A stretch of DNA of 18,563 bases from Methanothermococcus okinawensis (GCA_015661585.1 DQVU01000044.1:1-18563), one strand, 5' to 3'; numbered from the stretch's first letter, positions 1,939 through 17,543 are shown. Numbers and translations: made by a program. Notes: a model not told the origin generated them from the sequence alone.

Positions 1939-2256
1939 AATTTCCATCAACCTAAATATAACTTATTATAAGTACTTGAGGAAAGGATTATATCTCTTGT
2001 TGGCAGGACTCTATCTATGATTGTAGCAAGTCAAATACCTTTAAGGAGAGAGGGCTAACAGGATTTCATTCTATTATTCCCCTCAGTGTTCAGATATCTA
2101 AAGGATAAACGGTGGGGTTAATCTTTTTTGTTCATTTTAAGTATCTAACAATTCGGATTAACAGACTAACACCTTCTTAGACGCTCCTATATAGTGGAGG
2201 AGTATGACAAATCTTCCTTCCCAGGAGTTGTTATCATAAACCTTATTAATGGTGTG
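1939..2256. repeat. foldback repeat, double-core composite (copies A1 forward 1971-2123, A2 reverse about 2153-2240)
   Basis: The left terminus is AATTTCCATCAA (1939-1950) and the right terminus is CTTATTAATGGTGTG (2242-2256). The A1 3' part, CAGTGTTCAGATATCTAAAGG...TTTTGTTCATTTT, matches copy B1 (GGTGTTCAGAAAGATCTGAGATATAGGTTGTTTCATTTTT). The reverse complement of A2, ACTCCTGGGAAGGAAG...AAGGTGTTAGTCTG, matches the half-core. Confidence 0.6.
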
Positions 2257-2289
2257 TATGTTAATCAAGAATAGGTTTCTCATTTTTTC

Positions 2290-2487
2290 AGTTTAGCCAT
2301 TAAAACAATAATTAAAAGTTTCTAAGTTGTTGAATCTATTAAAAAGTAGAATGAAAACTTCCTGTCTATTTAACAAAAATAATATAGGGATAGAAAATCC
2401 TACCAATGTTGGAATTTTCTCCTTTTTAAGTGCTTAGGAGTCTCCCAAAGATAAAACAAATTTCTCTTTTTAATCTTATTGTATCGA
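2290..2487. repeat. foldback repeat, short copy A3
   Basis: The left terminus is AGTTTAGCCATTAAAAC (2290-2306) and the right terminus is CTTTTTAATCTTATTGTATCGA (2466-2487). The internal reverse half-core is ATCCTACCAATGTT (2397-2410) and CTTAGGAGT (2433-2441), split by a 22-nt insertion. Confidence 0.5.
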
Positions 2488-2620
2488 TTTTTAATTTAGT
2501 TTATTATTTATCATTATTATTTTTTAGTATTTTTCTAATAGATATAATTATTAATATAAATTCCATTTCTATAGATCTTTAATAAATAGTTATTCAAATT
2601 TACACCATAATGGTGATTCC

Positions 2621-3874
2621 ATGGAGTTAACTGTTAGCATCGGGTATCTTGCCCTACTCTTAATTTCAGGTACATTTATTGCAAAAGTAGGGGAGAAATT
2701 AGGAATACCTGATATACCTTTATTTTTAATATTTGGACTGATAGTAGGGCCACTCTTAAATATTGTACCTCCAAGTTATGCCCAGAATATCTTCGAATAC
2801 GTTGCCAACTTAGGTTTAATAGTGATCCTTCTAGTAGGAGCATTTGAGATGAGATGGATAGTGTTAAAGAGAGTTCTAAAAACAGTCTTAAAATTAGATA
2901 CCGTCACCCTCGTTGTTACAATGTTAGTCTCTGGTATTATTTACAACGTCATCTTGAGGATACCCTTTTTCAGTCCAGTGGGATACCTCTATGGGGCTAT
3001 AACTTGCGCCACAGATCCTGCTACCCTTATGCCTGTATTCTCCAAGTCAGATATAGATCCAAAACTGGCTATAACCTTAGAGGCAGAGAGTGTATTCAAC
3101 GATCCTCTAGGTATAGTGATTACAACTATAATCCTTACTACTATGGGATTAGCCACGTCCTTGAATCCTGTGATCAGTTTCCTATCCCTTGCCCTCGGAG
3201 GTATAATCTTAGGGATCTTAGGAGGAAAGATCTTCGAGATGTTGTTTTTAAAGTGTGATTTTAAAGAGTATATAATTCCTCTGTTCATTGGATTGGCCTT
3301 TTTCCTGTGGTACTTTGGAGATAGGATATTCCCAACTCTCACAGGATATCAGATAAGTGGTTTTATGGCTGTGGCTATTATGGGACTTTACTTGGGAAAC
3401 ACCCTTACTAAATATCACCATAAAACTAGGTGTATAGAAAGTATGGTGAGATTTTGTGAGGAGTTGTCCACAATATTCAGAATACTGATCTTCATATTCT
3501 TAGGGGCAAGTATCAGTTTAGTTATACTTGAAAAGTACTGGATATTTGGATTACTTTGTGCATTGGGATCTATATTCATAGCTAGACCCTTAGGTGTATT
3601 TCTTGCAACCTCCATTCCTCCTGCAAATTCCCTTAAGGAAAAGATATACTTTGCCTTGGAGGGTCCAAGAGGTGTAGTACCTGCGGCGTTATCTGCTACA
3701 GTGTATAGTATAATAGAGACTCACTCCTCCTCCATACCTGCAACTATTGTTAAATACCTCCCACCTCAGGAGATTGCAGGATCTATACTTGTGGCAACAT
3801 TTATAACAATACTCCTAAGTGTGATCCTCGAGGCCTCCTGGGCAGAACCTCTATATAAGAAACTTTTTAAATAG
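2621..3874 (+). CDS. nhaP: Na+/H+ antiporter, CPA1/NhaP type
   Basis: The 417-aa protein is polytopic and membrane-embedded. It carries the ATDPAT motif (CATDPATL) and the ND motif (SVFNDPLG) characteristic of NhaP-type exchangers. A GGTGAT ribosome-binding site lies upstream. Confidence 0.85.
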   Translation: MELTVSIGYLALLLISGTFIAKVGEKLGIPDIPLFLIFGLIVGPLLNIVPPSYAQNIFEYVANLGLIVILLVGAFEMRWIVLKRVLKTVLKLDTVTLVVTMLVSGIIYNVILRIPFFSPVGYLYGAITCATDPATLMPVFSKSDIDPKLAITLEAESVFNDPLGIVITTIILTTMGLATSLNPVISFLSLALGGIILGILGGKIFEMLFLKCDFKEYIIPLFIGLAFFLWYFGDRIFPTLTGYQISGFMAVAIMGLYLGNTLTKYHHKTRCIESMVRFCEELSTIFRILIFIFLGASISLVILEKYWIFGLLCALGSIFIARPLGVFLATSIPPANSLKEKIYFALEGPRGVVPAALSATVYSIIETHSSSIPATIVKYLPPQEIAGSILVATFITILLSVILEASWAEPLYKKLFK

Positions 3875-3939
3875 TAGGTGATATTGTGATTAAATATTTA
3901 CATTATGAAAGCAAGGATCCTCTAAACTTTGGTGGTTAA

Positions 3940-5223
3940 ATGAAGAATAAAGACGACAGAAGAATAAAAAAAATATGTGTAATTGGATTAGGATATATTG
4001 GGCTACCAACTGCCTCTATGCTTGCAAACCATGGATACAAGGTAGTAGGTGTAGATATCGACAGGGAGAGAGTAAGGAGTATAGAGAATGGAAATTTAAA
4101 TATAAAGGAACCTGGGTTGAAAACCCTCGTAAGTGGTGCTATAAACTCTGGAAATCTAAGGGTGAAAACTACACCTGAGGACGCCGATGCATATATAGTA
4201 TGTGTCCCTACACCTGTAAAGTGGGAAAATAGCACCCCAAGGTGTGATCTCTCTTATGTCTATAGTGCCATAGAGAGTATAAAACCATATCTACGTGATG
4301 GTAACTTAATAATTATAGAGAGTACAGTGCCTCCAAAAACTACGGAGAGGATATACAGGTATCTCAACAATGGTAGAAGAATATACATGGCCTACTGTCC
4401 TGAGAGGGTGCTGCCTGGTAAAATATTGAAGGAACTTGTAGAGAATGACAGGATTATTGGAGGAGTAAATAGGGAATCTGCAGAGTTGGCCAAGGAGATA
4501 TACTCATCCTTCGTAGATGGAAATATATATTTAACTGACTCCACCACTGCAGAGATGGTAAAACTTATGGAGAATACCTACAGAGATGTAAATATAGCCT
4601 TGGCAAATGAATTCGCGAAAATATGTGAGGAGATAAATGTAAATGTATGGGAGGCCATAGATCTCGCCAATAAACATCCAAGGGTGAATATACTGAATCC
4701 CGGGCCTGGCGTAGGCGGACACTGTATAAGTGTAGATCCCTGGTTCATAGTGGAGATATCTAAGAATGCAAAACTTATAAGGAGTGCGAGGGAGTTAAAT
4801 AACAGTATGCCTTACTACGTCTGTGATCTTGTATGTAAGGAACTTAAGAGGAGAGAGATAGAGAATCCAAAGGTTGCTATATTCGGAGTTGCCTACAAGG
4901 GAAATGTGGAGGATACAAGAGAGAGTCCTGGAAAGAATGTAATAGAGTGTCTCATCTCTAAGGGTATCTCTGTTTCCATATACGATCCCTATGTAAAAAC
5001 CTTTGAGTATCCACTGGAGAGTTTAAAGGAGTGTGTCACCAAGGGGGATATTATCTTGGTGATAACAGATCATGATGATTTTAAAAATTTCAAAGAGGAG
5101 GAGATCAGAGAGATATACGATCTGATGAGAAATAAGATAGTAATAGATACGAGGAATATACTTAAACATGATCTCTGGAGGAAGGCTGGTTTCTATGTTA
5201 AGTTGTTGGGAGATGGAAGATAA
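3940..5223 (+). CDS. wecC: UDP-N-acetyl-D-mannosamine (nucleotide-sugar) dehydrogenase
   Basis: The 427-aa protein has an N-terminal Rossmann motif ([10 protein letters not shown]) and the catalytic GGHCI motif of the UDP-glucose/GDP-mannose dehydrogenase family. The WecC subfamily call is from overall resemblance. Confidence 0.8.
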
Positions 5224-5230
5224 GCCATAA

Positions 5231-5237
5231 TTTTTTT
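5231..5237 (+). terminator. T7 tract 8 nt after the wecC stop (candidate terminator)
   Basis: The call rests only on the TTTTTTT run. Confidence 0.35.
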
Positions 5238-5247
5238 ATCCTAACCC

Positions 5248-5490
5248 AGTCCCATCAAAGTGATAGTTATAAAAATTATTTAAAAATAATAAGGTAAAAA
5301 TAATGAGAAGTTGTTAAAAAAAGAAAGTATAAAGAATACCTACTCCTGAACATTGGAAATAGGACAATTCTCTGTAATATCTTCTGATACTACTCATCTT
5401 TATCTTGGTGTTCAGAAAGATCTGAGATATAGGTTGTTTCATTTTTATTTTTATTATAGTAACAAACAAAACTTTTTAAATTAACAACAC
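5248..5490 (+). repeat. foldback repeat, copy B1
   Basis: The left terminus is AGTCCCATCAAAG (5248-5260), followed by an AT-rich arm. The forward half-core is at 5341-5372 and the reverse half-core at 5396-5419. The right arm is degenerate and AT-rich. Confidence 0.7.
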
Positions 5491-5497
5491 CCTCGAG

Positions 5498-5757
5498 GAT
5501 CTCCAATAAAATAATTAAGAATAATTAAAATAAAAAAAATTCTTAAAACACCTAAATAAAGAGTAAATACAGGTAAAAAGCAAAAATATAGCCTTTATAT
5601 CAGAGTACTGGAGAAGTAGAGTAAGATTTCTTTTTATTATACTTCTGAACATTAGAGGAAGGGAATTCTCCCCTAACTGGATTGACATTATTATCTTCCA
5701 ACTATAACTGTTGGATATCTCTTATATTATAACCGACTGAGAATTATATTTCCATTT
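5498..5757 (+). repeat. foldback repeat, copy B2 (3' half degenerate)
   Basis: The left terminus is GATCTCCAATAAAAT (5498-5512), followed by an AT arm. The forward half-core TACTTCTGAACATTAGAGGAAGGGAATTCTC is at 5640-5670. The central segment TATCTTCCAACTATAACTGTTGGA matches copy E (TATCTTCTAACTACAACTATGGGA). Confidence 0.6.
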
Positions 5758-5878
5758 TTTTTAAATAGGTGAAGGTTTCTTATAATTTTTATATAAGATG
5801 TTTTAATTATTACTTGATGGAAGTAAGATATCTATAAAAAATATAATCCAGAATATTTTACTACAAAAAACGAGGGAT

Positions 5879-6805
5879 ATGATGCTATACGTGGTAGGAC
5901 ATAAGAACCCAGACACTGACAGTATATGCTCCTCCATAGTTTTGGCATACTTCTTAGATGGAGTTCCTGCAAGGTTAGGAGATATAAATCCAGAGACTCA
6001 GTTGGTATTGAAGAGATTTGGAGTTATGGAACCTGAATTAATAAGATCTGCAGAGGGTAAAGAGATATTCTTAGTGGATCACAGTGAGAGATCTCAAACT
6101 TTAGAAGACTTAGAGAAGGGGAAACTTGTAGGTATTCTGGATCATCACAAAATAGGTATTACTACATCAGAACCTATAATATATCTTGCAAAACCTGTAG
6201 GATCTACCGCCACATTAATAGGAGAACTCTACTTTAAAAATACGTTGGACATTATAGGGGGAAAGAATAAGGAGTTGAAACCTGACTTGGCAGGGCTACT
6301 ACTCTCTGCAATACTCTCAGATACAGTTCTCTTTAAATCTCCAACTACCACAGATATAGATAGGAAGATAGGGGAAAAACTTGCAGAGATTGCAGGTATA
6401 GAGGACATACAAACCTACGGTATGGAGTTACTGAGGGCAAAATCTACAGTGGGTAAGATGACTCCCGAGGAGATCGTTAAATTGGACTACAAGGAGTTCA
6501 ACTTCAACGGTAGGAAGGTGGGTATTGGACAGGTTGAGGTGATAGATATTGGGGAGATTCAGGAGAAGAAGGAGGAGATATACAGGATCCTAGAGGAGAA
6601 ACTTAAAGAGGGTTACGATCTAATACTGTTCCTTATAACTGATATAATGAGAGAGGGTAGTGAAGTGTTGGTTGTAGGTAATAAGGAAGCATTTGAGGGA
6701 GCCTTCAATGTAAATTTGGAAGGGAGGAGTATATACTTAGAGGGTGTTATGTCCAGGAAGAAACAGGTAGTTCCCCCCTTGGAGAGGTACTATAAAAGTT
6801 TGTAA
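5879..6805 (+). CDS. ppaC: manganese-dependent inorganic pyrophosphatase (family II, DHH/DHHA2)
   Basis: The 308-aa protein has the N-terminal GHKNPDTDSICS motif, the DHH motif (LDHHK) and a DHHA2 C-terminal domain. Confidence 0.9.
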   Translation: MMLYVVGHKNPDTDSICSSIVLAYFLDGVPARLGDINPETQLVLKRFGVMEPELIRSAEGKEIFLVDHSERSQTLEDLEKGKLVGILDHHKIGITTSEPIIYLAKPVGSTATLIGELYFKNTLDIIGGKNKELKPDLAGLLLSAILSDTVLFKSPTTTDIDRKIGEKLAEIAGIEDIQTYGMELLRAKSTVGKMTPEEIVKLDYKEFNFNGRKVGIGQVEVIDIGEIQEKKEEIYRILEEKLKEGYDLILFLITDIMREGSEVLVVGNKEAFEGAFNVNLEGRSIYLEGVMSRKKQVVPPLERYYKSL

Positions 6806-6837
6806 TATTAACTTTTCTGTTATTTCTTATATTTTAT

Positions 6838-7030
6838 TAGGGGAAAATGATTCCTGAATATTTTTTATACAACTGTTGATATTACAATAGATTCCTAATC
6901 TTTATCTCGGTGTTCAGAAAATATTTTGAGGTATTTAATGATTTTATTCATTTTTTATAGATTTTTATTGTTGTTTTATTATTATAACAATTATTATTTT
7001 ATCTTTTAATCACTACTTTTAATGGGAACT
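6838..7030 (+). repeat. foldback repeat, copy C (5'-truncated)
   Basis: ATCTTTATCTCGGTGTTCAGAAA (6898-6920) matches B1 5396-5418 with one mismatch. CTTTTAATCACTACTTT (7003-7019) is identical to 13498-13514. The right terminus is CTTTTAATGGGAACT (7016-7030). Confidence 0.7.
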
Positions 7031-7134
7031 AAGTTTTTTAATTATTTTTGTTATAGTTTAAAATGTTATCTCCATGACCTATGAGTAAATTTCAATTGTG
7101 GCAGAATTCTATCCACAAAATTATAGTGGGGTTA

Positions 7135-8250
7135 TTAGTTTTGTCCAAAGTTATCTAAGAGATTACATAACCTTTCAAAATCCTCCTCCCTATGTTTCAC
7201 ATTTATACTTACTCTTATCCTCTCAAGCCCTTTAGGTACAGAGGGGTATCTGATTCCTGGGGCAAATATTCCATTTTTAATTAGATACTCTGAAATTTCC
7301 ATAGTCCTCTCCCCCAGTATTATGGGATATATAGGCGTTAAATTATCCTCCCCAATAAGGTTGTACCTCTTAAATATCCTATTTGCACTCCTTATGTTCT
7401 CCTGTAACTTCTTAGTTAAATATCCTTCCTCTATCAACTCTAAACTCCTAAGGACTCCAGAGACTACTGGGGGAGGCAATGCAGTTGAGTAGATGAAACT
7501 CCTAGAGGTGTTTATTAGATACTCCACCACCTCCTCTATTCCACATACAAAGCCCCCCAACCCTCCAAAGGCCTTGGAGAGAGTACCTATCTGGATGATG
7601 TTATCTGAGGGTTTTATGTTGAAGTGTTTCAAGGTGCCTTTACCTTCACCTAATACCCCCGTACCATGGGCGTCATCTACTATCACTACACCGTTGTACT
7701 CATCTGCAACCTTCTTTATATCCTTCAGTGGTGCAATATCTCCATCCATGGAGAACACTCCATCAGTAACAATAAATATATTGTTGTATCTTCTCCCCTT
7801 ATTCTCCAATATATTTACTAAACTCTCTATATTACAGTGTTCGTATATCTCCACATCTGCCCTACTTAACCTACATCCATCTATTATAGAGGCATGGTTT
7901 AACCTATCACTTAGAATCAGATCTCCCTTTTTACAGAGGGAACTTATAACTCCAACGTTTGTAGAGTATCCAGTAGGATATACTAAGGCTCTTTCTGTCT
8001 CCTTGAATTCTGCCAACCTCTCCTCTAAGATCTCGTGGTTTATATTTCCAGAGGTTAATCTGGATCCTGTGGAACCTAAACCGTATTTTAATCCCTCCTT
8101 TACGGCCTCTATTACCTCAGGATGTTTTGAGAGACAGAGGTAGTCATTTGAGGAGAAGTCTAAGACATCTCCACCTTTTTTTCTTAGAAATCTGTATAAG
8201 TTGTTTCTCTTAATAATCTCCAATTCTTTCCTTAGTTTTAATCTAAACAT
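7135..8250 (-). CDS. bioF: 8-amino-7-oxononanoate synthase (class II aminotransferase)
   Basis: The 371-aa protein has the PLP-lysine context GTLSKAFGGLGG and the DDAHG motif. Overall it resembles the BioF/Kbl family. No other bio genes are in the window. Confidence 0.8.
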   Translation of the reverse strand: MFRLKLRKELEIIKRNNLYRFLRKKGGDVLDFSSNDYLCLSKHPEVIEAVKEGLKYGLGSTGSRLTSGNINHEILEERLAEFKETERALVYPTGYSTNVGVISSLCKKGDLILSDRLNHASIIDGCRLSRADVEIYEHCNIESLVNILENKGRRYNNIFIVTDGVFSMDGDIAPLKDIKKVADEYNGVVIVDDAHGTGVLGEGKGTLKHFNIKPSDNIIQIGTLSKAFGGLGGFVCGIEEVVEYLINTSRSFIYSTALPPPVVSGVLRSLELIEEGYLTKKLQENIRSANRIFKRYNLIGEDNLTPIYPIILGERTMEISEYLIKNGIFAPGIRYPSVPKGLERIRVSINVKHREEDFERLCNLLDNFGQN

Positions 8251-8260
8251 ACTTTCACAC

Positions 8261-8558
8261 GTTAAAATTAAAGGATATTATTAGTCGATAAAAAATAAAA
8301 AGATAATAAAAAAACCCTGTATTACCTTTCTCCGGAGTGTCTTTGAGATCTACTGTTTAAATCCACCTCACCACCCATATATGGTAGTAGAACCAACACA
8401 CTTTTAAAAAGAAGAGGTGGCAGGAATTCTACCTTCTTTCCCAATTCTCAGAAGTGTCCGAGAAGAATAATGTTTTTTATGTGTTAATATCTTTAAGTGT
8501 TTAACAATTTTAGAGTTTATACCATATTTTTTATTATATTCTTTTAAATTCTTTAAAT
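8261..8558 (-). repeat. foldback repeat, copy D (core inverted relative to B1/E)
   Basis: The half-core lies on the minus strand (GAATTCTACCTTCTTTCCCAATTCTCAGAAGTG, 8424-8456). TCTCCGGAGTGTCTTTGAGATCTACTG (8334-8355 region) is homologous to the reverse complement of E 13403-13432. AT-rich arms lie at 8261-8325 and 8527-8558. The termini are weak. Confidence 0.55.
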
Positions 8559-8673
8559 ATTTTTAAGATTTAAAATGTTAAAAACCCCTATTTAGACATT
8601 TGAAAATATCAATTTATTATATCATCATAGGTAAAATCAAAATTATCTAATCTTTGTACGGAGAGGTGATACC

Positions 8674-9903
8674 TTGACAGAGGTTGTTAATATTACACCA
8701 ACTACCAGGCATGAAGGGCATGCCAAGTTGATACTTGAAGTTGATGGGGAGGGTATAGTAAGTAAAGCCTACTACATAAATACCACCCCAGTTAGGGGTT
8801 TTGAAACTATGTTGGTAGGGAGACCTGCTGAATTTGCCCCAATTGCAGTTATGAGGATATGTGGTATATGTCAAACTACCCATGGTATAGCCTCATGTAG
8901 TGCAATTGAGGATGCTATCGGTTGTGAGGTACCAGAGGATGGACTTCTGTTAAGGGAGTTGGTGGGATTGGGAAATAGAATGCACTCCCATCCACTACAC
9001 CACTTACTAACCCTTGAGGACTTTATAAAACCTGAGGAGGAGACTCTAAAGATTGATACTATAAAACTTATCCAGAGGATGAGAAAGGTCGGACAGTTGA
9101 TAGTGGATACTGTAGGAGGTGAGGGTATTCATCCTCCAAATATTGTGATAGGTGGTATGAGGACAAATATCTCTGAAAGAGCTAAGGCAAAGTTGTACTA
9201 CGCGTTGAAACAGTATGAAAAGGATGCCTATATGATGTACGAGATATACGTAGAATTAGTAGAGAGATACTTGGAAGAAGTTGGTATCCCAGATTTAGGA
9301 TCCCACGACTACCCTTATATAGCATCCCATACCACCTACGGAGATAGATATGCTATAAACTGGGATGGTGTTGTGGAGATACCTCCCCATAGGTACTATA
9401 AGGATATCAAGATCGCAGAGAGTACCTCGGTAATGATACCTCTCTACGAAGGAGTTCCTGCTGAGGGGGGACCAAGGGCTAGGTTGGTTAAATTTGGGAA
9501 CTTTAGATCTGGAGGAAGTGTAATGGATATAAACATTGCAAGGGCCAAGGAAAACTTAGGGGCAGTATATAGAGCCATGGAGATACTTGATGAGTTAGAT
9601 ATAAATGGAAAGACTAGGACAACACCTGAGTACAGGGATGGCTTTGGAATAGGAGTCCATGAGGCACCTAGGGCTACAAATACCCACTTTGCAGAGGTTG
9701 GAAAGGATGGAAGGATTAAATCTTACAAGATTATAGCTGCATCAACCTGGAACTTCCCCGTAGTTGAGAAGGCTATTGAGGGTTATCCTCACCAATACGC
9801 AGAGGTTATAATGCGTGCTTACGACATATGAGCATCATGTGCAACCCATGTAATTGTTAAAGATGATGAGAGCAAAGAGATAATAGAGATAAGAAAGATT
9901 TAA
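8674..9903 (+). CDS. fruA: F420-reducing [NiFeSe] hydrogenase alpha subunit, selenocysteine at codon 386 (TGA 9829-9831)
   Basis: The start is TTG, with GGAGAGGTGAT upstream. The N-terminal Ni-binding motif is RICGICQTTH. The frame continues past the TGA as ASCATHVIVKDDESKEIIEIRKI*, which gives D-I-U-A-S-C-A-T-H in place of the DPCxxCxxH large-subunit motif, plus the usual C-terminal propeptide. A SECIS hairpin follows immediately downstream. Confidence 0.9.
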
Positions 9904-9937
9904 GACTCGAGGGGAACCATTTCTGGACCCGAGAGTC
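9904..9937 (+). promoter_or_regulatory. archaeal SECIS element for fruA
   Basis: The sequence is GACUC-GA-GGG-GAA-CCA-UUUC-UGG-A-CCC-GA-GAGUC. It forms a 5-bp lower stem, tandem G-A pairs, a GGG/CCC helix, the conserved asymmetric GAA/A internal loop, a 3-bp apical helix and a 4-nt loop. It starts 1 nt after the true fruA stop codon. Confidence 0.85.
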
Positions 9938-9954
9938 AAGATAAGGGTAATAAC

Positions 9955-10467
9955 ATGGAGGGATTAAATCCATCCTACTTTAAGGAGATAATGGTTTTAG
10001 GTTGTGGGAATATCCTATTTGGAGACGACGGTTTCGGTTTTCACGTCATTGAGAAACTTAAAGATCTACTAACTGAGGAGGAGAAGGAAAGGGTAGCCCT
10101 TGTAGATGCAGGTACGGGGGCACCACAACAGGTGCTCTCCCTTATAGATGAGACTACAAAGACAAAAAAGATAATCGTTGTGGATATCATAGATTACAAT
10201 CTAAAACCTGGAGAAATAAAGATATTAAAAAAGGAGGATCTACCAGATCCTAAGTATTCTCGATTGGATATCCACAACTGGCCCTTGGCAGGTATCTTAA
10301 AAGAGATATGTGAGAGGTACAACATAGACATCCTTGTGGTGGGTTGTCAGGGGAAGTTTATACCAAAACCTGATGTATATATTGGACTTAGTAAAGAGGT
10401 TGAGAAGGGGGTTGATAAAGCGGTGGAGATAATTCTAAAGGAGATAAGAAACAACAAAGAGGGATAA
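9955..10467 (+). CDS. fruD: F420-reducing hydrogenase delta subunit / large-subunit C-terminal maturation protease
   Basis: The 170-aa protein has [18 protein letters not shown], typical of the HycI/FrhD endopeptidases. It occupies the operon position between the alpha and gamma subunits. Confidence 0.88.
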
Positions 10468-10468
10468 G

Positions 10469-11140
10469 ATGGAGGATAAAAGGATAACTGTAGCACATGT
10501 ACAGTTAAGTAGTTGCTGTGGATGTTTAATATCTCTAACAGATACCTACGAGAAACTTCTAGACGTCCTAAATAGTGTAGATCTTGTATACTGTCAGACA
10601 CTGATGGATGTAAGGGAGATTCCTAAGGCAGATATTATCTTAGTAGAAGGTGCTGTATGTCTCGATGATCACCATGCCATGGAGATAGCAAAGGAGGTTA
10701 GAGAGAAGGGGAAGATAGTAGTTGCATTAGGTGCATGTGCAGCAGTAGGAGGTATTACAAGGTTCTCCAAAGGGGGACAGATGTCTAAACCTGTCCAAAG
10801 CTCCTTCTCCTCACTGACAGAGGTAGTAAAGTGTGATCTTGCTATACCTGGATGCCCTCCATCTCCAGAGTTAATAGTAAATGTTATCACTGCAGTTATA
10901 GAGGGAAACACTGAGTATTTAAAACCCTTTGTGAGATATGGAGAGAGGAAGTATGAGGCTTGTGGATGTGATCTTATAATTAACGCTATAAACAAATCCC
11001 TCTGTATGGGATGTGGTGTCTGTGCAGCCTCCTGTCCAACGAGAGCCATAGAGATGGTTGAGGGAAGACCCTTAGTGTCCTCCCAACTATGTATAAAGTG
11101 TGGAGTATGTTCCTTCCAATGTCCTAGAATAGAGGTTTAA
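10469..11140 (+). CDS. fruG: F420-reducing hydrogenase gamma (small, FeS) subunit
   Basis: The 223-aa protein has the N-terminal small-subunit Cys pattern (SSCCGC) and two C-terminal ferredoxin-type CxxCxxCxxxCP motifs. Confidence 0.88.
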
Positions 11141-11163
11141 ATATAATTTTTATAGGTGATTCC

Positions 11164-12021
11164 ATGGAGCCCCTTGGAAGTTATAAAAGTATAATATCGG
11201 CAAGAGCTACAGATAGTAGAATACTCAAAAGATCCCAGGATGGAGGTATAGTATCTGCAGTATTCATATATGGGTTGGAGAACAACATTTTAGATGGGGT
11301 TATCGTAGCAGATAAGGAGGAGAACTTTAAACCAGTCCCAAAGGTTGTCACTACACCTGAGGAGGTGTTAGAGGCGGCAGGTACTAAATACACAGTATGT
11401 CCAAATCTCAGTGTATTAAAAAGTGCTATAAGGGAGTACGGCTGTGAAAGGATCGGAGTAGTTGGTACCCCCTGTCAGATCATATCCTTAAGGAAGGTCC
11501 TTAAGTATCCGGTAGGGTTTCGACATCTGGTAAATAAGGTTGCACTACTTCTAGGTATATTCTGTATGGAAAACTTCCCATATATGGGGATGAAGACTAT
11601 AGTGGAGGAACTCTGTGGTGTAAAGTTGGAGGATGTAGTTAAGATGGATATTGGAAAGGGTAAATTCTGGGTATATACTAGATGGGGAGATGCGAAATCT
11701 ATTAAACTGAAAAAAACCCATCCCTATGAACAGATATCCTGTCATGTATGTACAGATTATACTGCAGAGTTGGCAGATATTTCAACAGGTTCGGTAGGTA
11801 GTCCAGATGGCTGGAGTACAGTACTCATAAGAAGTGAGAAAGGAGAGGAGATCATCAATAAAATGATAGAGGAGGGTTATCTAGAAACTAAACCTGTAGA
11901 TGAGGGTAAGTTTGGATTAGGCATACTTAAAAAACTCGCACTTACTAAAAAGGAGAAAAATATGAAGGAGATAGAGCATAGAAAGGAGTTAGGATTACCT
12001 GTACCACCTAAGGTATGTTAA
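11164..12021 (+). CDS. fruB: F420-reducing hydrogenase beta subunit (FrhB family, FAD/F420-binding)
   Basis: The 285-aa protein resembles the FrhB family (SQDGGIVS..., [21 protein letters not shown]). It is the last gene of the operon. Confidence 0.88.
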
Positions 12022-12024
12022 TTA

Positions 12025-12037
12025 TTTTTTTATTTTT
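12025..12037 (+). terminator. oligo-T tracts after fruB (candidate terminator)
   Basis: TTTTTTTATTTTT begins 4 nt after the stop codon. This is a heuristic call. Confidence 0.4.
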
Positions 12038-12203
12038 ATAACGAGACTGTGAGATGGCAACAATAAAGCAAGAACCCTAAAATAAATTTAATAAAAATAA
12101 TATAAAAGAGTAATTTAAATTGAGATTGTCAAACATCTAAAAAGATAGAGTTATAAAAAAGTGAAATTCGTATTTTAATATTTTATTATAAATAATAAAA
12201 ATA

Positions 12204-12221
12204 AGATCCCATTAATCAAAA
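12204..12221 (+). repeat. solo terminus-like motif of the foldback family
   Basis: AGATCCCATTAATCAAAA resembles the left terminus AGTTYCCATYAAAG. It is short and AT-rich, so support is weak. Confidence 0.3.
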
Positions 12222-12296
12222 CTATGGAAGACCTATTTTAATTTATATTATAATAATTTACATTTTATATTAAAAGTAGGGATAGAAGGGGTGACG

Positions 12297-13187
12297 ATGA
12301 ATATATTTCTCTTTGAATACGCCGTAGGGAGTAACGAAGATGTGGATCCCCATATACTACAAGAGGGTAAGTTGATGTTCGACAGATTGTTAGAGGATTT
12401 TCTAAATAACAACTTCACTGTTATCACTGTTGTAGGTGAGAGGTGTATACAATACTACAGGGGTAGAGATAACCTGAAAGTGTATATCCAGAGAGATTCC
12501 AACGTAATGGAAACCGTGGAGGAGGTGTTAAATAGGGAGAAAATAGATGGTGCCCTTGTAATTGCACCTGAGTGTGATGGATCGCTTTACAGACTGACTA
12601 AGTTGATCGAAGAAGAAGGCATCTTAAACTTAGGTTCCCACAGTGAAGGTGTGAGAATTGGGGGAAATAAATATCTAACCTACGAGAAGATAAAAGATGT
12701 TGTTAAAACTCCTAAAACTTTACCTCCAAAGAGATACATATTAAAGGAAATAGACGGTTGTGGTGGTTCCAATCAATTGGTAGTCCCTGAGAATTACATA
12801 ATTCAGGAATATATAGAGGGAGAACCTTATTCCACAAGTTTCATAGTAGGGGGTAAATTCTATCCTCTATCCCTCAATAAACAGTATTACAGGAATGGGA
12901 AATACATAGGGGGAGAGATCAACATAAATCACCCCCTCAAAGATAGGATAATAGAGGAGTCGATGAAGGCACTGAGGGAGATAGAAGGTTTAAATGGGTA
13001 TGTAGGTGTGGATATCTTATTGGATGGAGATACTATATATATTCTCGAGATAAACCCCAGAATAACCACATCTATAGTAGGTATATACACCACCCCTACC
13101 ATCTCACAACTATTAGTAGATAACGCCAAGGGGAAGGATCTTAGATATAGTGTAGTGGGAAGTAGGAAGATTACTATAGATTTATAG
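12297..13187 (+). CDS. ATP-grasp (ATP-grasp_3-like) ligase, possibly tyramine--L-glutamate ligase of methanofuran synthesis
   Basis: The C-terminal half looks like an ATP-grasp fold (EYIEGEPYS..., GYVGVDILLDGDTIYILEINPRITTS). I prefer the ATG at 12297 over the track's GTG at 12291 (GGGGTGA directly upstream). The MfnD assignment is by resemblance from memory only. Confidence 0.6.
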   Translation: MNIFLFEYAVGSNEDVDPHILQEGKLMFDRLLEDFLNNNFTVITVVGERCIQYYRGRDNLKVYIQRDSNVMETVEEVLNREKIDGALVIAPECDGSLYRLTKLIEEEGILNLGSHSEGVRIGGNKYLTYEKIKDVVKTPKTLPPKRYILKEIDGCGGSNQLVVPENYIIQEYIEGEPYSTSFIVGGKFYPLSLNKQYYRNGKYIGGEININHPLKDRIIEESMKALREIEGLNGYVGVDILLDGDTIYILEINPRITTSIVGIYTTPTISQLLVDNAKGKDLRYSVVGSRKITIDL

Positions 13188-13524
13188 AGTTTCCATTAAA
13201 AGAATAATAAAAAATAATAAAAATAATAATAAGAATAAAAAAATAACAAAAAAGGTTTTAAAAATAAAAACCTCTATCCACTCTGAATACAAATATATCC
13301 CCTCTACTCCTGAAGATTGGAGGAGGGAATGATTCTCTGAATATCTTCTAACTACAACTATGGGATGGTCCTTATACCATGGTAGAATTTCCTTATCCTA
13401 TACCAGTATTCAGAAAACATCCGGAGACATGGATATAGTTATTTATTAGGATTTTTACTTTTTTATTTTTATCATTATTTTATTATTTTTTATTATTCTT
13501 TTAATCACTACTTTGATAGAAACT
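13188..13524 (+). repeat. foldback repeat, copy E (most complete, 337 bp)
   Basis: The termini are AGTTTCCATTAAAAG (13188-13202) and CTTTGATAGAAACT (13511-13524). There is an exact 27-nt inverted repeat, 13196-13222 versus 13478-13504. The forward half-core is at 13305-13337 and the reverse half-core at 13381-13416. The element starts 1 nt after the upstream stop codon. Confidence 0.8.
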
Positions 13525-13587
13525 AAGGTACAATTTGTACTTTATCAGGATTTTTGATGAGACGTAAGGCGTTAAATTTGTGATAAT

Positions 13588-14466
13588 ATGAAGTTTCTAA
13601 TACTGAAGATAACTAACAACTGTAACTTAAGGTGTATCTACTGCTATAGGGAAGATAACACAGGTAAAAAAGAGATGAGATTCAAAACTGCTAAAAATGC
13701 CATAGACTATATCCTAAAGAAAGATGATAAATTAAAGATCCAATTTACTGGGGGGGAGCCTCTATTAAATTTCAAATTAATTGAGAGAATTGTAGATTAC
13801 TGCAAGGATCAATATCCGGATAAAAATATAACCTACGCTGTTCAAACCAACGGAACTTTACTGGAGAAAGGGATTATAGAGAAGATTAAAGAGTTGAATA
13901 TAAAAGTGGGAGTAAGTTTGGATACCATAGATCCCACGGATACTATCTTAAGACCCTACAGGGATGGGAGACCTTCTACCTTGGATACCTTAAGAGGTAT
14001 GTACCTCCTGAAGGAGGACAAGGTACCCTTTGGAGTTACAACTGTGGTAACTAATAAAAACCTCCCACATCTTCAGGATCTCGTGTATTACCTTGTCTCA
14101 ATGGGTGTAAAGAGTATAAGTTTTGATCTGTTGAAGCCTAAGAAGAGAGAACATCTCTCACTGATGCCAGAGGAGGAAGAATTTAGAAAAGTTCTGGAGA
14201 AGATGAAGGATCTTCCCATCTATATAAAGAATTTAAGAAAGAGATCTAAGGATAAATACTGCTATCTAAACAGTGGGGACCTTCTCTTCGTCAATGAAAT
14301 TGGAGATATTTATCCCTGTCCCACCTTAGAAGGTCACTTCTACGGGGGAAACATTAACAGTGGAAAAGATATTAAAGTATTTAAAGTTAAATGTAACTAC
14401 TGTTTTGCCAGAGGTTATCTAATTGGAAGATTGCTAACTACCCTTCCCAACACTGAGATACTCTGA
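13588..14466 (+). CDS. radical SAM enzyme with a truncated SPASM/twitch-like C-terminal Cys domain
   Basis: The CNLRCIYC motif (Cx3Cx2C) lies at residues 12-19. The C-terminus has C-x13-G-x4-C followed by CNYC, enough Cys for one auxiliary cluster. The substrate is unknown. Confidence 0.8.
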   Translation: MKFLILKITNNCNLRCIYCYREDNTGKKEMRFKTAKNAIDYILKKDDKLKIQFTGGEPLLNFKLIERIVDYCKDQYPDKNITYAVQTNGTLLEKGIIEKIKELNIKVGVSLDTIDPTDTILRPYRDGRPSTLDTLRGMYLLKEDKVPFGVTTVVTNKNLPHLQDLVYYLVSMGVKSISFDLLKPKKREHLSLMPEEEEFRKVLEKMKDLPIYIKNLRKRSKDKYCYLNSGDLLFVNEIGDIYPCPTLEGHFYGGNINSGKDIKVFKVKCNYCFARGYLIGRLLTTLPNTEIL

Positions 14467-15102
14467 TAGGAACCTTCCAAATTCTACGATATTCCTACTT
14501 TGGATGAATATCTTACCTGTCCCTCTGAATTCATATACTCTGCCCTCTCCACTGAAGATCGTAGTTTTTAAACCCCCTATTCTTTTTAGGGAATATTCAA
14601 GGCCCTCAGTGAATCCTACGAGGTTTCCGTTATCTACTATAATCTTGTCGTCCTCTAACTCGATAGTTTCAAGAACCCCAAAGGAGGATAGGAACACATC
14701 CCCCTCTCCCTTAAGTTTCATCAAAAAAAGCCCCATTCCACCAAATATCATCTTCAAGTCACTAAGCTTAGTATCTATCTCTATATCTGGTGAGGACGCT
14801 AAGTAGGCGCCACTTTGGACGTAGAGAGTTCCATCTAATCTGTAGTGAGTAATATCCCCTACGTATTTTGGAGCTAAGGCCAAGGTACCAGTCCCATAGA
14901 ATTTATTTAAAAAGAGATTCTCCCCTACTACCATCCTCTTTAACGCCCCCATCAAACCTCCCCTTATATCTGTATCCACCTGGATACCCTTGGACATATA
15001 GACCATGGCGCCGGTTTCTGCTATTATACTCTGATCTCTAAGGTTTATTTTTAGTAGAGAGTAAGCTGGGCCATACTCTATTTTAAAATCGTACTCTGTC
15101 AT
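14434..15102 (-). CDS. AIM24/DUF124 (TIGR00266-like) family protein
   Basis: The 222-aa protein begins ...YSLLKINL...GAMVYM, and its repeated beta-rich pattern is typical of DUF124. A GAGGAGAT ribosome-binding site lies upstream. Confidence 0.7.
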   Translation of the reverse strand: MTEYDFKIEYGPAYSLLKINLRDQSIIAETGAMVYMSKGIQVDTDIRGGLMGALKRMVVGENLFLNKFYGTGTLALAPKYVGDITHYRLDGTLYVQSGAYLASSPDIEIDTKLSDLKMIFGGMGLFLMKLKGEGDVFLSSFGVLETIELEDDKIIVDNGNLVGFTEGLEYSLKRIGGLKTTIFSGEGRVYEFRGTGKIFIQSRNIVEFGRFLSEYLSVGKGS

Positions 15103-15181
15103 AGTATCTCCTCAGTAACTTTTAATGTGTTTTATAAAAGTTGGATATATTTATTGTTTTTTATTTTGCTCCTCATAACCG

Positions 15182-15194
15182 AAAAGTTTATATA
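15182..15194 (+). promoter_or_regulatory. BRE/TATA box for tRNA-Cys
   Basis: AAAAGTTTATATA matches the Methanococcales consensus (A-rich BRE plus TTTATATA). Its position, 47 nt upstream of the mature 5' end, implies a short leader. Confidence 0.5.
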
Positions 15195-15240
15195 GTAGAT
15201 ATAATTACTACCATATTAGATATCCTTAAGTGGGTGTTGT

Positions 15241-15317
15241 GCCAGGGTAGTCTAGTCTGGCAAGGCGGCGGACTGCAGATCCGCTTTAGGAGGGTTCAAA
15301 TCCCTCCCCTGGCTCCA
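15241..15317 (+). tRNA. tRNA-Cys (anticodon GCA), CCA encoded
   Basis: I folded it by hand. The acceptor stem is GCCAGGG/CCCTGGC, the D stem GTCT/AGGC, the anticodon stem GCGGA/TCCGC with loop CTGCAGA, and the T arm GAGGG-TTCAAAT-CCCTC. The discriminator is U73 and position 37 is G. Confidence 0.92.
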
Positions 15318-15445
15318 TTTTTTTGTAGATATTATATTTATATATTTAAATATATTAGTAAAATATGGATAAGTATTAATTTATTAAATATTTAGATATC
15401 ATATTTTAAATTTATTAATAGATATCTCCATAATTCCAAAACGAC

Positions 15446-15458
15446 AACTTTTTATATA
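15446..15458 (+). promoter_or_regulatory. BRE/TATA box for hmd
   Basis: The TATA box of AACTTTTTATATA ends 44 nt upstream of the ATG. An AGGTGA ribosome-binding site lies at 15492-15497. Confidence 0.5.
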
Positions 15459-15501
15459 ATTTCTATAAATAATATTGATTGTCAAAAAATAAGGTGATAT
15501 T

Positions 15502-16533
15502 ATGAAGATTGCCATATTGGGAGCAGGGTGTTATAGAACTCATGCCGCTTCAGGGATTACAAACTTTGCAAGGGCTGTAGAGGTGGCAAACAAGGTAAAT
15601 AAACCTGAGATTGCATTAACCCACTCCTCAGTTACCTACGGAGCAGAATTGCTACACCTTGTCCCAGAGGTAGATGAGGTTGTACTCTCAGATCCCTGCT
15701 TCTCAGAGGATCCAGGCCTCGTTATAATAGATGAATTTGACCCACAGGAGGTTATAGAGGCACATTTATCTGGAGATCCTGAAAAGATAATGCCTGCCAT
15801 TAGAAAAGCTGTAATGGAAAAGGCTAAGGAACTTCCAAAACCGCCAAAGGCCTGTATCCACTTAGTACACCCAGAGGATGTAGGATTAAAGACAACCTCG
15901 GATGATAGGGAGGCAGTAAGTGATGCAGATATTGTAATAACCTGGTTACCAAAGGGGAAGAGTCAGCCAGGAATAATTGAAAAATTCGTGGATGCAATAA
16001 AAGAGGGGGCTATAGTAACACATGCCTGTACAATTCCAACTCCAAAGTTTGCTAAAATATTCAAGGATGCTGGAAGGGAGGATCTAAATATTACATCATA
16101 TCACCCAGGAGCAGTACCTGAGATGAAGGGACAGGTATTCTTGGCAGAGGGATTCGCATCTGAAGAGGCATTAGAGAAACTTTACAATATAGCAAAGATT
16201 GCAAGAGGTAATGCCTACAGACTACCTGCAAACCTCATAAGCCCAGTATGTGATATGGGATCAGCAGTTACCGCCACAGTATATGCAGTATTGCTGGCAT
16301 ATAGAGAAGCTGTTACAAAGATACTTGGAGCACCTGCAGACTTTGCCCAGATGATGGCAGATGAGGCTATCACTCAGATACTGGAGTTGATGAGGAAGGA
16401 AGGTATAGGTAAGATGGAGGAGAAGTTAGATCCTAAGGCTCTAACTGGTACAGCAGACAGTATGTGCTTTGGGCCTCTCTCAGATATATTACCCAATGCA
16501 TTGAAGGTTCTTGAGAAGTATGGTAAGGATTAA
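15502..16533 (+). CDS. hmd: H2-forming methylenetetrahydromethanopterin dehydrogenase ([Fe]-hydrogenase)
   Basis: The 343-aa protein is near-colinear with Methanocaldococcus Hmd as I recall it (MKIAILGAGCYRTHAA...ITWLPKG...THACTIPT...YHPG.VPEMKGQ...GTADSMCFGPL). It includes the FeGP-binding Cys in THACTIP. Confidence 0.93.
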   Translation: MKIAILGAGCYRTHAASGITNFARAVEVANKVNKPEIALTHSSVTYGAELLHLVPEVDEVVLSDPCFSEDPGLVIIDEFDPQEVIEAHLSGDPEKIMPAIRKAVMEKAKELPKPPKACIHLVHPEDVGLKTTSDDREAVSDADIVITWLPKGKSQPGIIEKFVDAIKEGAIVTHACTIPTPKFAKIFKDAGREDLNITSYHPGAVPEMKGQVFLAEGFASEEALEKLYNIAKIARGNAYRLPANLISPVCDMGSAVTATVYAVLLAYREAVTKILGAPADFAQMMADEAITQILELMRKEGIGKMEEKLDPKALTGTADSMCFGPLSDILPNALKVLEKYGKD

Positions 16534-16546
16534 TTAAATATCCCTA

Positions 16547-16561
16547 TCTTTTTACTTTTTA
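16547..16561 (+). terminator. oligo-T tracts after hmd (candidate terminator)
   Basis: TCTTTTTACTTTTTA begins 14 nt after the stop codon. This is a heuristic call. Confidence 0.4.
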
Positions 16562-16582
16562 CATCTTAGTAATAATTATAAC

Positions 16583-16640
16583 CCCGTTCCCATTAAAATA
16601 TCCTATTATTTTTATTATTATAACGATTATTATTTTTTAA
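16583..16640 (+). repeat. solo left terminus plus AT arm of the foldback family
   Basis: GTTCCCATTAAAA (16586-16598) is followed by TATTATTTTTATTATTATAACGATTATTATTTTTT. Compare ATTATTATAACAATTATTATTTT in copy C. No core is present. Confidence 0.5.
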
Positions 16641-16653
16641 TATACTTTGAGAA

Positions 16654-17415
16654 TTAAGATACTATATATCTATCTACAATTTTTTCGACTTCCCTATATA
16701 CCTCGTTATTCTCATCTATCTCAAATAAAGGTATCCCTAAGAGATCGTACTTGGCAATTTCTTCACTGTAGGGCAACTTTGCAATTAACTTGAGTCCAAG
16801 TTCCCTGGCGTATCTCTCTACCATTTCTGAAGTTTTCTCATTAACCTTATTAGCCACTACATAGATGTTTTTAAATTTGATATCTAACTCCTCTGCCAAC
16901 TTCTTTATCCTCTTTGCAGTCCCAAGTCCCCTCTTAGATGCATCAGTCACCACTATCATAGTATCTACATTTTGAGTTGTCCTCCTACTTAGGTGTTCCA
17001 GTCCAGCCTCAGTATCTATCACTACGTAGTCGTAGGATGTTGATAGGTTATCTATTATCTGTCTTAACCAGTTATTTACACTACAGTAACAGCCACTACC
17101 TTCAGGCCTTCCCATAACTAACAAGTCGAAGTTGTCAGTCTCCACTATTATCTCGTATATCTTTCCCATAAGGTACTCCTGTTTAGATATACCTGGCGGC
17201 AACTTATTCTCCTCTACCAACCTCTTCAACTCCTCCCTTATATCACCTATGGTTCTCTCCACCTCTACACCTAGGGTTTCTGGAAGGTTAGAGTCTGGAT
17301 CTGCATCTATAACAAGTAGATTTTTACTCATTTTAGATAATACTTTTACAAGGAATGTGGAAAACATGGTTTTCCCAGTCCCTCCTTTCCCACTTACAGC
17401 GATTATCTTTGCCAA
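16654..17415 (-). CDS. CooC-type (MinD/ParA superfamily) metal-insertion ATPase
   Basis: The protein has the deviant Walker A GKGGTGKT and the CxC motif (GSGCYCSVN) typical of CooC nickel-insertion ATPases. The start is TTG, with GGTGAT upstream. Confidence 0.75.
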   Translation of the reverse strand: MAKIIAVSGKGGTGKTMFSTFLVKVLSKMSKNLLVIDADPDSNLPETLGVEVERTIGDIREELKRLVEENKLPPGISKQEYLMGKIYEIIVETDNFDLLVMGRPEGSGCYCSVNNWLRQIIDNLSTSYDYVVIDTEAGLEHLSRRTTQNVDTMIVVTDASKRGLGTAKRIKKLAEELDIKFKNIYVVANKVNEKTSEMVERYARELGLKLIAKLPYSEEIAKYDLLGIPLFEIDENNEVYREVEKIVDRYIVS

Positions 17416-17543
17416 TATATCACCAAGAATTAAATATTATTTCAATAATGGATACTTATGTACCTACACAAAAGATTTATATCTATTGTTATAATATTCC
17501 TTTTTGATTATTATTATTTTAAAATTTATATATAGGGATTTAT

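Follow-up and report, generated by a model that had tools for sequence, protein, structure and literature searches.

The miniature inverted-repeat transposable elements, or MITEs, of archaea, such as SM1-SM4 of Sulfolobus solfataricus and the MITEs of haloarchaea, are non-coding, multi-copy and intergenic elements of a few hundred bp, which are bounded by terminal inverted repeats and target-site duplications, and mobilisation in trans is presumed for them. They were reviewed in PMC10969869 and counted in a census in PMC11602168, and Methanococcales is not mentioned as a MITE host in the text of either paper. Here a repeat family resembling these elements in the properties above is described from a stretch of 18,563 nt of Methanothermococcus okinawensis DNA (GCA_015661585.1 DQVU01000044.1:1-18563; the whole stretch is called the window) and from its relatives. 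The family is real and apparently undescribed, and nothing was found in the literature on repeats in Methanofervidicoccus or on MITEs in Methanococcales. Based on the terminal inverted repeats, 8-bp target-site duplications, small size, lack of an open reading frame (ORF), dispersal and a nested insertion, it is likely a MITE family specific to the Methanofervidicoccus-like branch of Methanococcales.

Repeat family, its ends and its target-site duplications

The window was compared with a collinear 15-kb contig of a sister strain from another metagenome (L024, 93% identical in coding DNA), with two separate loci (L031 and L030) of the complete genome of Methanofervidicoccus sp. A16 (CP022242.1, 629-650 kb and 862-883 kb, 41.8 kb in total), the nearest named genome (aminotransferase 89% identical), and with Methanothermococcus sp. 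SCGC AD-155-C09 (L006). Sequence L002, 99.8% identical to the window, was excluded as uninformative for comparison. An initial profile was built only from four window copies, designated E, B1, B2 and C. It also recovered the reverse strand of E and a further window copy, D (8270-8547, minus strand, E value 3e-4). A profile search of relatives, put forward as a check in the preliminary description of this DNA, detected copies at non-syntenic, unrelated loci of A16 with E values of 7e-13 to 1e-7, namely at L030 3-176 (4.8e-12), 13216-13543 (2.7e-8) and 17286-17554 (6.9e-8), and at L031 8914-9209 (7.3e-13). Once it had been iterated twice, with copies of other genomes added to the window copies, the profile found seven copies in the A16 loci and two in SCGC AD-155-C09. 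Dinucleotide shuffles in 150-nt blocks of all loci (five sets) were used as the null, and the best match in shuffled DNA had an E value of 0.018, compared with 1e-19 to 1e-57 for the real matches of the iterated profile. The alignments therefore did not collapse under a composition-corrected null, and the similarity exceeded what low complexity would give, as had been claimed.

In total, at least 20 copies, some of them tandem or nested, were found in about 130 kb of carrier-lineage DNA. They adjoined unrelated genes in the window, the two A16 regions and SCGC AD-155-C09, that is, they were dispersed over non-homologous loci, and their share of the DNA was 5-9% in the window and the two A16 regions. 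In the window, six copies were supported by the profile and a seventh was a mini copy of 80 bp; together they spanned about 1.65 kb, or about 9% of the window and roughly 35% of the approximately 4.66 kb of non-coding DNA in it. The first estimate of about eight copies, roughly 2 kb and most of the non-coding DNA was too high. Each of the five long spacers did contain a copy of one family, as first proposed, and the shared strings quoted for them were present, including 26 nt at 92% identity (5393/6895), an 18-nt core (5340/5639/13304) and CTTTTAATCACTACTTT (7003 and 13498). The motif YCTGAAYAYY, which was picked after seeing the data, occurred nine times in the window compared with 1.09 expected, and eight of the nine were in spacers. 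No ORF of 60 aa or more was found inside the window copies.

The copies in A16 were less decayed than those in the window and revealed the anatomy of the element. The intact element is non-coding, 260-410 bp long (80-410 bp across all copies) and about 25% in G+C, and it consists of the left end ACCCTAGTTCCCATCAAAAGGATAGTT, an A-rich arm, a core of about 100 nt with slightly higher G+C, a T-rich arm and the right end GTTCTTTTAATCACTACTTGGTGGGAACTAAGGT, which reads ACCTTAGTTCCCACCAAGTAGTGATTAAAAG in reverse complement. The terminal inverted repeats are imperfect, about 17-30 bp long, with the consensus ACCCTAGTTCCCATCAAAAG, and the right end has about 13 extra nt relative to the left one. This is the asymmetry that had been reported as conserved, with D in the opposite orientation, in agreement with the strand of its profile match, and the descent of the copies from a single asymmetric master rather than from independent palindromes was supported.

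The ends were searched with the 20-mer ACCCTAGTTCCCATCAAAAG, allowing up to five mismatches, and inward-facing pairs were sought. Such pairs, with 0-5 mismatches, were found in L030, L031 and L006. The window and the sister strain gave single or paired matches, and the ends were degenerate but recognisable at 13183/13529, 7034, 5244 and 16581/16660. The family was restricted to this lineage, and 20 other loci of Methanococcales and Methanobrevibacter gave 0-1 matches to the end 20-mer. The terminal motif sites listed in the preliminary description stood in part. With up to two mismatches, AGTTYCCATYAAAG occurred at 7017 (minus), 13188 (plus), 13511 (minus) and 16585 (plus), together with a chance match in a gene at 1300, making five compared with 0.99 expected; the listed sites at 7016, 13188, 13511 and 16586 were thus recovered, those at 5248 (one deletion) and 5498 (the variant GATCTCCAATAAAA) were plausible by alignment, and those at 1939, 2290, 2242 and 2466 were at chance level.

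Wherever two ends formed an inward-facing pair, the 8 nt flanking the predicted element on one side were compared with those on the other. Duplications matching at 8/8 positions lay exactly at the predicted ends of the A16 elements at L031 8909-9218 (TCTTTTAT), L030 13571-13977 (ATTAAAAA) and L030 17562-17820 (ATATATTT), and the chance of such a match in comparable AT-rich DNA was 0.0004 per test. The last of these elements is nested, as it lies inside the copy at 17276-17868, about 48 nt from its left end, with its own duplication. In L006, a 10/10 duplication, ATTTATATTT, flanked an element at 14276-14668 with the same ends and a different interior.

This L006 element and another at 2513-2790 share the terminal repeat, and their interiors differ from that of the family and are less AT-rich. 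A 45-nt block is common to the two, and the one with the perfect 10-bp duplication has a 43-codon ORF. They look like a second MITE family using the same ends.

Copies in the window and their decay

Copy E (13183-13529, plus strand) is full length with 347 bp and was matched by the profile at 13186-13515 (E value 4e-57). It comprises the degenerate left end TATAGAGTTTCCATTAAAAG, an A-rich arm, the core (13305-13416), a T-rich arm and the right end CTTTGATAGAAACTAAGGT, and its left end contains the TAG stop codon (13185-13187) of the upstream ATP-grasp gene. Copy E aligned to its own reverse complement across about 330 nt and was 67% identical, with indels, to its orthologue in the sister strain; its flanks agreed at 2/8 positions, which means no target-site duplication.

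Copies B1 and B2 stand in tandem on the plus strand. B1 (5244-5490, about 247 bp; profile match 5251-5483, E value 2.9e-28) begins 21 nt past the stop at 5223 and aligned with the left half of E; its left end ACCCAGTCCCATCAAAG is near the family consensus, its right end is degenerate, and its right half (5386-5487) is missing from the sister strain. B2 (5493-5829, about 337 bp; profile match 5504-5833, E value 1.9e-28) aligned weakly to E over its full length and carries the variant left end GATCTCCAATAAAA, also present in the sister strain, and the right end TTTTAATTATTACTTGATGGAAGTAAGAT. Within B2, the 40-nt block CCTTTATATCAGAGTACTGGAGAAGTAGAGTAAGATTTCT (5593-5633) was about 95% conserved in the sister strain, unlike the element sequence around it; relative to the family profile the block is inserted, and no C/D-box pattern was evident in it.

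Copy C (6836-7034, plus strand; profile match 6840-7018, E value 2.9e-20) is truncated on its left side and consists of the core, the T-rich arm and the right end CTTTTAATCACTACTTTTAATGGGAACTAAGT. It was 68% identical to the right half of E over 214 nt, with almost identical right ends, and the sister strain retains the left arm of this copy and has an additional copy beside it. Copy D (8266-8552, minus strand; profile match 8547-8270) has degenerate termini on both sides; its E value improved from 3e-4 with the window-only profile to 5.7e-19 after iteration, and it was 57% identical to its sister-strain orthologue.

Copy A (2391-2541, minus strand; profile match 2541-2391) is partial, comprising an arm and a half-core, and could be aligned to the sister strain; the window-only profile matched it at an E value of 0.62, which fell to 1.5e-5 on iteration. 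It is the only supported family sequence in the spacer 1762-2620. The copy placed earlier at about 1939-2290 was unsupported, nothing in 1762-2390 matching the family, and 1940-2330 as a further copy was rejected, with no profile match and no counterpart anywhere in the compared loci. This left two-thirds of the longest spacer (1762-2390) has slightly higher G+C, up to 35%, and showed no family match, no Rfam match, no ORF above 44 aa and no counterpart in the compared loci. It coincides with a break of synteny: upstream of the Na+/H+ exchanger gene, the sister strain has a PII (GlnB-like) gene and the window has Rpo7.

The mini copy (16581-16660, plus strand, 80 bp) was identified with moderate confidence by terminal-motif match and is too short for a profile match. 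It is made of the left end ACCCCGTTCCCATTAAAAT, 40 nt of right-arm sequence and the right end CTTTGAGAATTAAGAT, which holds the stop codon (16654-16656) of the convergent ParA-like gene. A stretch of 27 nt was 96% identical to the right arm of C, and the sister strain has the same mini element with 63-66 more internal nt. The mini copy is probably an internal-deletion derivative.

The window copies are old and eroded. The same copies stand at the same places in the window and the sister strain, so that they predate the split of the two strains. Between these strains the elements were 64.7% identical in aligned columns, with 285 and 118 nt unaligned, compared with 82.7% identity at four-fold degenerate sites and 89-93% in the non-element spacers just upstream of frhA and of the radical-SAM gene. 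Degenerate ends, the lack of duplications and the identity of 65% compared with 83% at four-fold sites thus all pointed to old copies, the decay of which is neutral or faster than synonymous.

Comparison of orthologous spacers, another check suggested at first, was likewise informative. It showed the shared, decaying copies of the sister strain and tiny spacers in a lineage without the family. The Hmd/ParA spacer measured 3 nt in this lineage (okinawensis-like metagenome-assembled genome (MAG) L004), compared with 120 nt in the window and 184 nt in the sister strain; the RraA/MoeA spacer measured 1 nt, compared with 867 nt in A16; and the Fer4/ArgB spacer measured 16 nt, compared with 274 nt in L041/L042 and 1209 nt in A16. 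Since these gene pairs are near-touching in the okinawensis-like lineage, the family accounts for the unusually long spacers of this thermophilic methanogen lineage, in which 300-1200 bp separate genes that lie 1-20 bp apart in the closest compact relatives.

Four independent assemblies of a sister lineage (L033-L036) end about 90-370 nt after the RraA gene, and the longest, L033, ends inside the spacer that holds a degenerate family copy. With several contigs ending in or beside copies, this suggests that the repeats break short-read assemblies.

Origin of the family and alternative explanations

The assignment to MITEs would imply mobilisation in trans. A transposase encoded elsewhere would bind both ends of the element, which would be inserted into AT-rich intergenic DNA via an 8-bp staggered cut. 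The preference for AT-rich targets would extend to the arms of copies already in place, and the tandem and nested arrangement of copies, as well as the swelling of spacers, would be accounted for in this way. The transposase would be of the DDE type, the usual producer of such duplications. A side effect is conceivable for the host, in that transcription arriving from either side could stop at the oligo-T runs of the distal arm.

Insertion polymorphism would fit the nested insertion with its own duplication, the extra copy and the missing element halves by which the window and the sister strain differ, and the spacers of 1-16 nt in the lineage without the family. Several observations weigh against the assignment. 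In the window, neither an intact target-site duplication nor perfect ends were seen in any copy, and of the A16 copies whose ends are good, about half are without a duplication. The comparison of spacers yielded no clean empty site carrying one target 8-mer: the RraA/MoeA copy is common to A16 and the L033 lineage, and the Fer4/ArgB spacers are too AT-rich and diverged for unambiguous alignment. The density is also patchy, as the carrier-lineage contigs L033 (11 kb), L041 and L042 (12-15 kb) hold at most weak remnants. Finally, a transposase gene bounded by the same termini, the search for which had been suggested earlier, was not found in the sampled DNA, about 100 kb of it from carrier lineages. 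The sampled loci contained neither pairs of ends 0.6-2.5 kb apart nor transposase domains, and no partner was found with element ends or copies in plasmid, phage and viral collections. A scan of a metagenome collection with the core pattern gave a single chance match, in DNA of 49% G+C, scans of viral contigs with end patterns gave 0 matches and 1 chance match, and two copies had no BLAST match among plasmids and phages. Three ORFs were considered as transposases and rejected: the 397-aa ORF beside the broken aminotransferase gene of A16 encodes a WD40 propeller, and the 416-aa and 418-aa ORFs of L006 encode TiaS and PGK.

Among the alternatives, a functional host module was considered first. 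The copies would then be bidirectional terminators, insulators or protein-binding regulatory elements, spread by recombination or exapted after transposition, and kept for their function. Their positions fit such a role, with E (13183-13188) and B1 (21 nt past the stop at 5223) directly after stops and the mini copy flanked by the convergent genes of Hmd and ParA. Moreover, the distal arm always offers runs of T5-T7 to a polymerase from either side, and the termini are the best-conserved part across genera. However, orthologous copies diverged faster than four-fold degenerate sites and with large indels, while neighbouring promoter-proximal DNA was 89-93% conserved, a sister lineage does with spacers of 1-16 nt at the same gene pairs, and the 8-bp duplications show transposition and not recombination. 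A function maintained by selection was therefore judged improbable, and bidirectional termination is possible as a side effect of the elements.

The second alternative was a family of structured non-coding RNA genes, namely long hairpin RNAs, in AT-rich intergenic DNA. Foldback, ascribed to the family at first, was not supported as a family property. In whole-length DNA folding, copy E folded far better than its shuffles (z -5.2), and the cores were slightly higher in G+C than the arms. But among the copies folded, E alone formed a strong hairpin over its whole length; B1 (z -0.05) and one copy of A16 (z -1.6) folded no better than shuffles. A foldback element or long inverted repeat was thus rejected as the class, with halves complementary in E only. 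The complementarity of arms within a copy was no higher than between arms of different copies, by which co-evolution of arms to keep a hairpin in each copy was rejected; the partial palindromy is explained by the terminal inverted repeats together with the A-rich left arm and the T-rich right arm. In addition, RNAalifold on nine cores gave no consensus pair, and conservation was below the synonymous level (64.7% compared with 82.7% at four-fold degenerate sites). Rfam gave no match to the family in the window at E values up to 1 or in the A16 loci at gathering score, only tRNAs and 5S rRNA being detected by these scans, in agreement with the preliminary description, which had assigned the repeats to no named family. 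We regard RNA genes as very unlikely.

Equally slim is the chance that the copies are origin-like modules, i.e., AT-rich, readily unwound DNA flanked by inverted sites of a replication initiator. The inverted terminal motifs do surround A/T-rich arms, and the termini ACCC..GTTCCC bear a loose likeness to the G-string and GTTTCC in the origin recognition boxes (ORBs) of archaea; some ends have the sequence ACCCCGTTCCCATT (16581), and that of the Aeropyrum ORB is ACCCCTCCGTTTCCTGTGGAG. The termini (ACCC-n-GTTCCCAT...) might conceivably mimic an ORB bound by a divergent Orc1/Cdc6-like initiator of Methanococcales, and such a mobile module, if true, could bear on the poorly defined replication origins of Methanococcales. 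This was nevertheless considered unlikely given the duplications, the rapid decay and the lack of the ORB dyad (TCCAnnGGA) in the termini; the copies are also many and dispersed, tandem and nested, and no orc1/cdc6-like gene adjoins any of them.

The weakest alternative, that low-complexity AT-rich spacers were over-aligned into a seeming family, has a negligible chance, for although many pairwise BLAST matches between spacers were matches of A/T runs and four of the motif sites first listed were at chance level, it was refuted by the A16 and iterated-profile matches and the shuffle controls, and the core and termini, which are not of low complexity, are also present in a different genome, A16.

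Genes around the copies and comparison with known systems

The window DNA, a JGI metagenome contig (3300013794, Ga0180415_1000419), derives from a hydrogenotrophic methanogen. Its genes include Rpo7, a Na+/H+ exchanger, UDP-glucose dehydrogenase, a DHH phosphoesterase, 8-amino-7-oxononanoate synthase, an F420-reducing hydrogenase operon, an ATP-grasp ligase, an HcgA-like radical-SAM protein, AIM24, tRNA-Cys, Hmd and a ParA-like ATPase. After A16, the nearest genomes were GTDB representatives labelled Methanothermococcus okinawensis (Hmd 90% identical in amino acids). A search of GTDB with Hmd gave 20 loci, the nearest of which, from okinawensis-like MAGs, shared only AIM24-tRNA-Hmd-ParA with the window and had no copies.

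At 9829-9831, the apparent stop of the hydrogenase large-subunit ORF is a TGA, and the frame can be read through it as RAYDI-U-ASCATHVIV up to a TAA at about 9901-9903. From the reading frame, this looks like a selenocysteine codon and the hydrogenase like the selenocysteine form (FruA). The hairpin GACTCGAGGG...CCCGAGAGTC (9905-9938), directly after this ORF and without a match in Rfam, could be a SECIS element. Upstream of frhA/fruA, 8553-8673 was 93% identical to the sister strain, with an almost invariant block of about 75 nt (8556-8630), compared with 57% for the adjoining copy D; it probably serves the hydrogenase operon as promoter or regulatory region.

The collinear sister-strain contig lacks the AIM24-family gene (14434-15102, minus strand). 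Because this gene is present beside Hmd in the more distant okinawensis-like MAGs L003 and L004, the sister strain probably lost it recently. In A16, L031 10001-11971 (about 638-640 kb of CP022242.1) contains a second, truncated 8-amino-7-oxononanoate synthase gene of 226 aa, 87% identical over 60% of the query, followed by the gene of a 397-aa WD40/beta-propeller protein, the DNA of which is internally repetitive. Sequences L028 and L029, from the same metagenome as the window, represent a second Methanococcales population with a 90%-identical aminotransferase in a tightly packed, different neighbourhood without repeat copies, and binning by marker genes could confuse the two populations. A different repeat, an identical stretch of at least 60 nt (…CCCAAAAGTCTGATGTTCAAAGTTTAAATTAAGAC…), occurs twice in A16, 8.5 kb apart (L030 11697 and 20243), one of the copies being upstream of a cluster of five tRNAs and 5S rRNA (11958-12513).

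For annotators of Methanofervidicoccus-like genomes and MAGs, the family provides a defined repeat with a consensus end, an 8-bp duplication and a profile, and it adds Methanococcales to the archaeal orders with a seemingly abundant MITE family. It also helps to understand how genomes of this lineage have expanded. It is selfish DNA of an ordinary kind, by which no concept of genome function is changed, and it points to a transposase encoded in these genomes. If the density of 5-9% held genome-wide, a couple of hundred copies would be expected in 1.5 Mb, which is a rough extrapolation from three sampled regions (the window and two of A16) that were not randomly chosen. Such a number would be near the top of the archaeal genomes in the census (PMC11602168).

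Among other systems, palindromic intergenic repeats in many copies are also known as REP/BIME/REPIN elements, which RAYT (IS200/IS605-like) transposases mobilise. REPs are G+C-rich hairpins of 20-40 nt without target-site duplication, and membership of the present family was ruled out by its size of 260-410 bp, its G+C of about 25% and its 8-bp duplications. The bacterial repeats ERIC/IRU, Correia/NEMIS, RUP and BOX, which are classed as MITE-like, share with it the character of imperfectly palindromic intergenic repeats which enlarge spacers, lie near gene ends and can be co-transcribed. Those repeats are about 100-160 bp long and frequently fold into conserved RNA hairpins whose effects on mRNA have been documented, whereas the present elements are longer and their copies have no conserved hairpin in common.

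The ISM1 family of insertion sequences (IS), which is alike in its methanogen host and 8-bp duplication, is a candidate for the type of the autonomous partner. ISM1 of Methanobrevibacter smithii is about 1.4 kb long, with 29-bp inverted repeats and an 8-bp duplication. Several other IS families also make 8-bp duplications, and ISM1 is only a lead.

Archaeal MITEs therefore remain the closest systems. SM1-SM4 are linked to known Sulfolobus IS elements, while no partner IS of the present family was found in the sampled DNA. Compared with SM1-SM4 and the haloarchaeal MITEs, to which it has no sequence similarity, the family differs in its Methanococcales host, in its extremely AT-rich sequence with strand-asymmetric A-rich and T-rich arms, and in its high local density in the sampled regions; it agrees with them in its length of a few hundred bp, its lack of coding capacity, its terminal inverted repeats and target-site duplications, and its multi-copy, intergenic occurrence.

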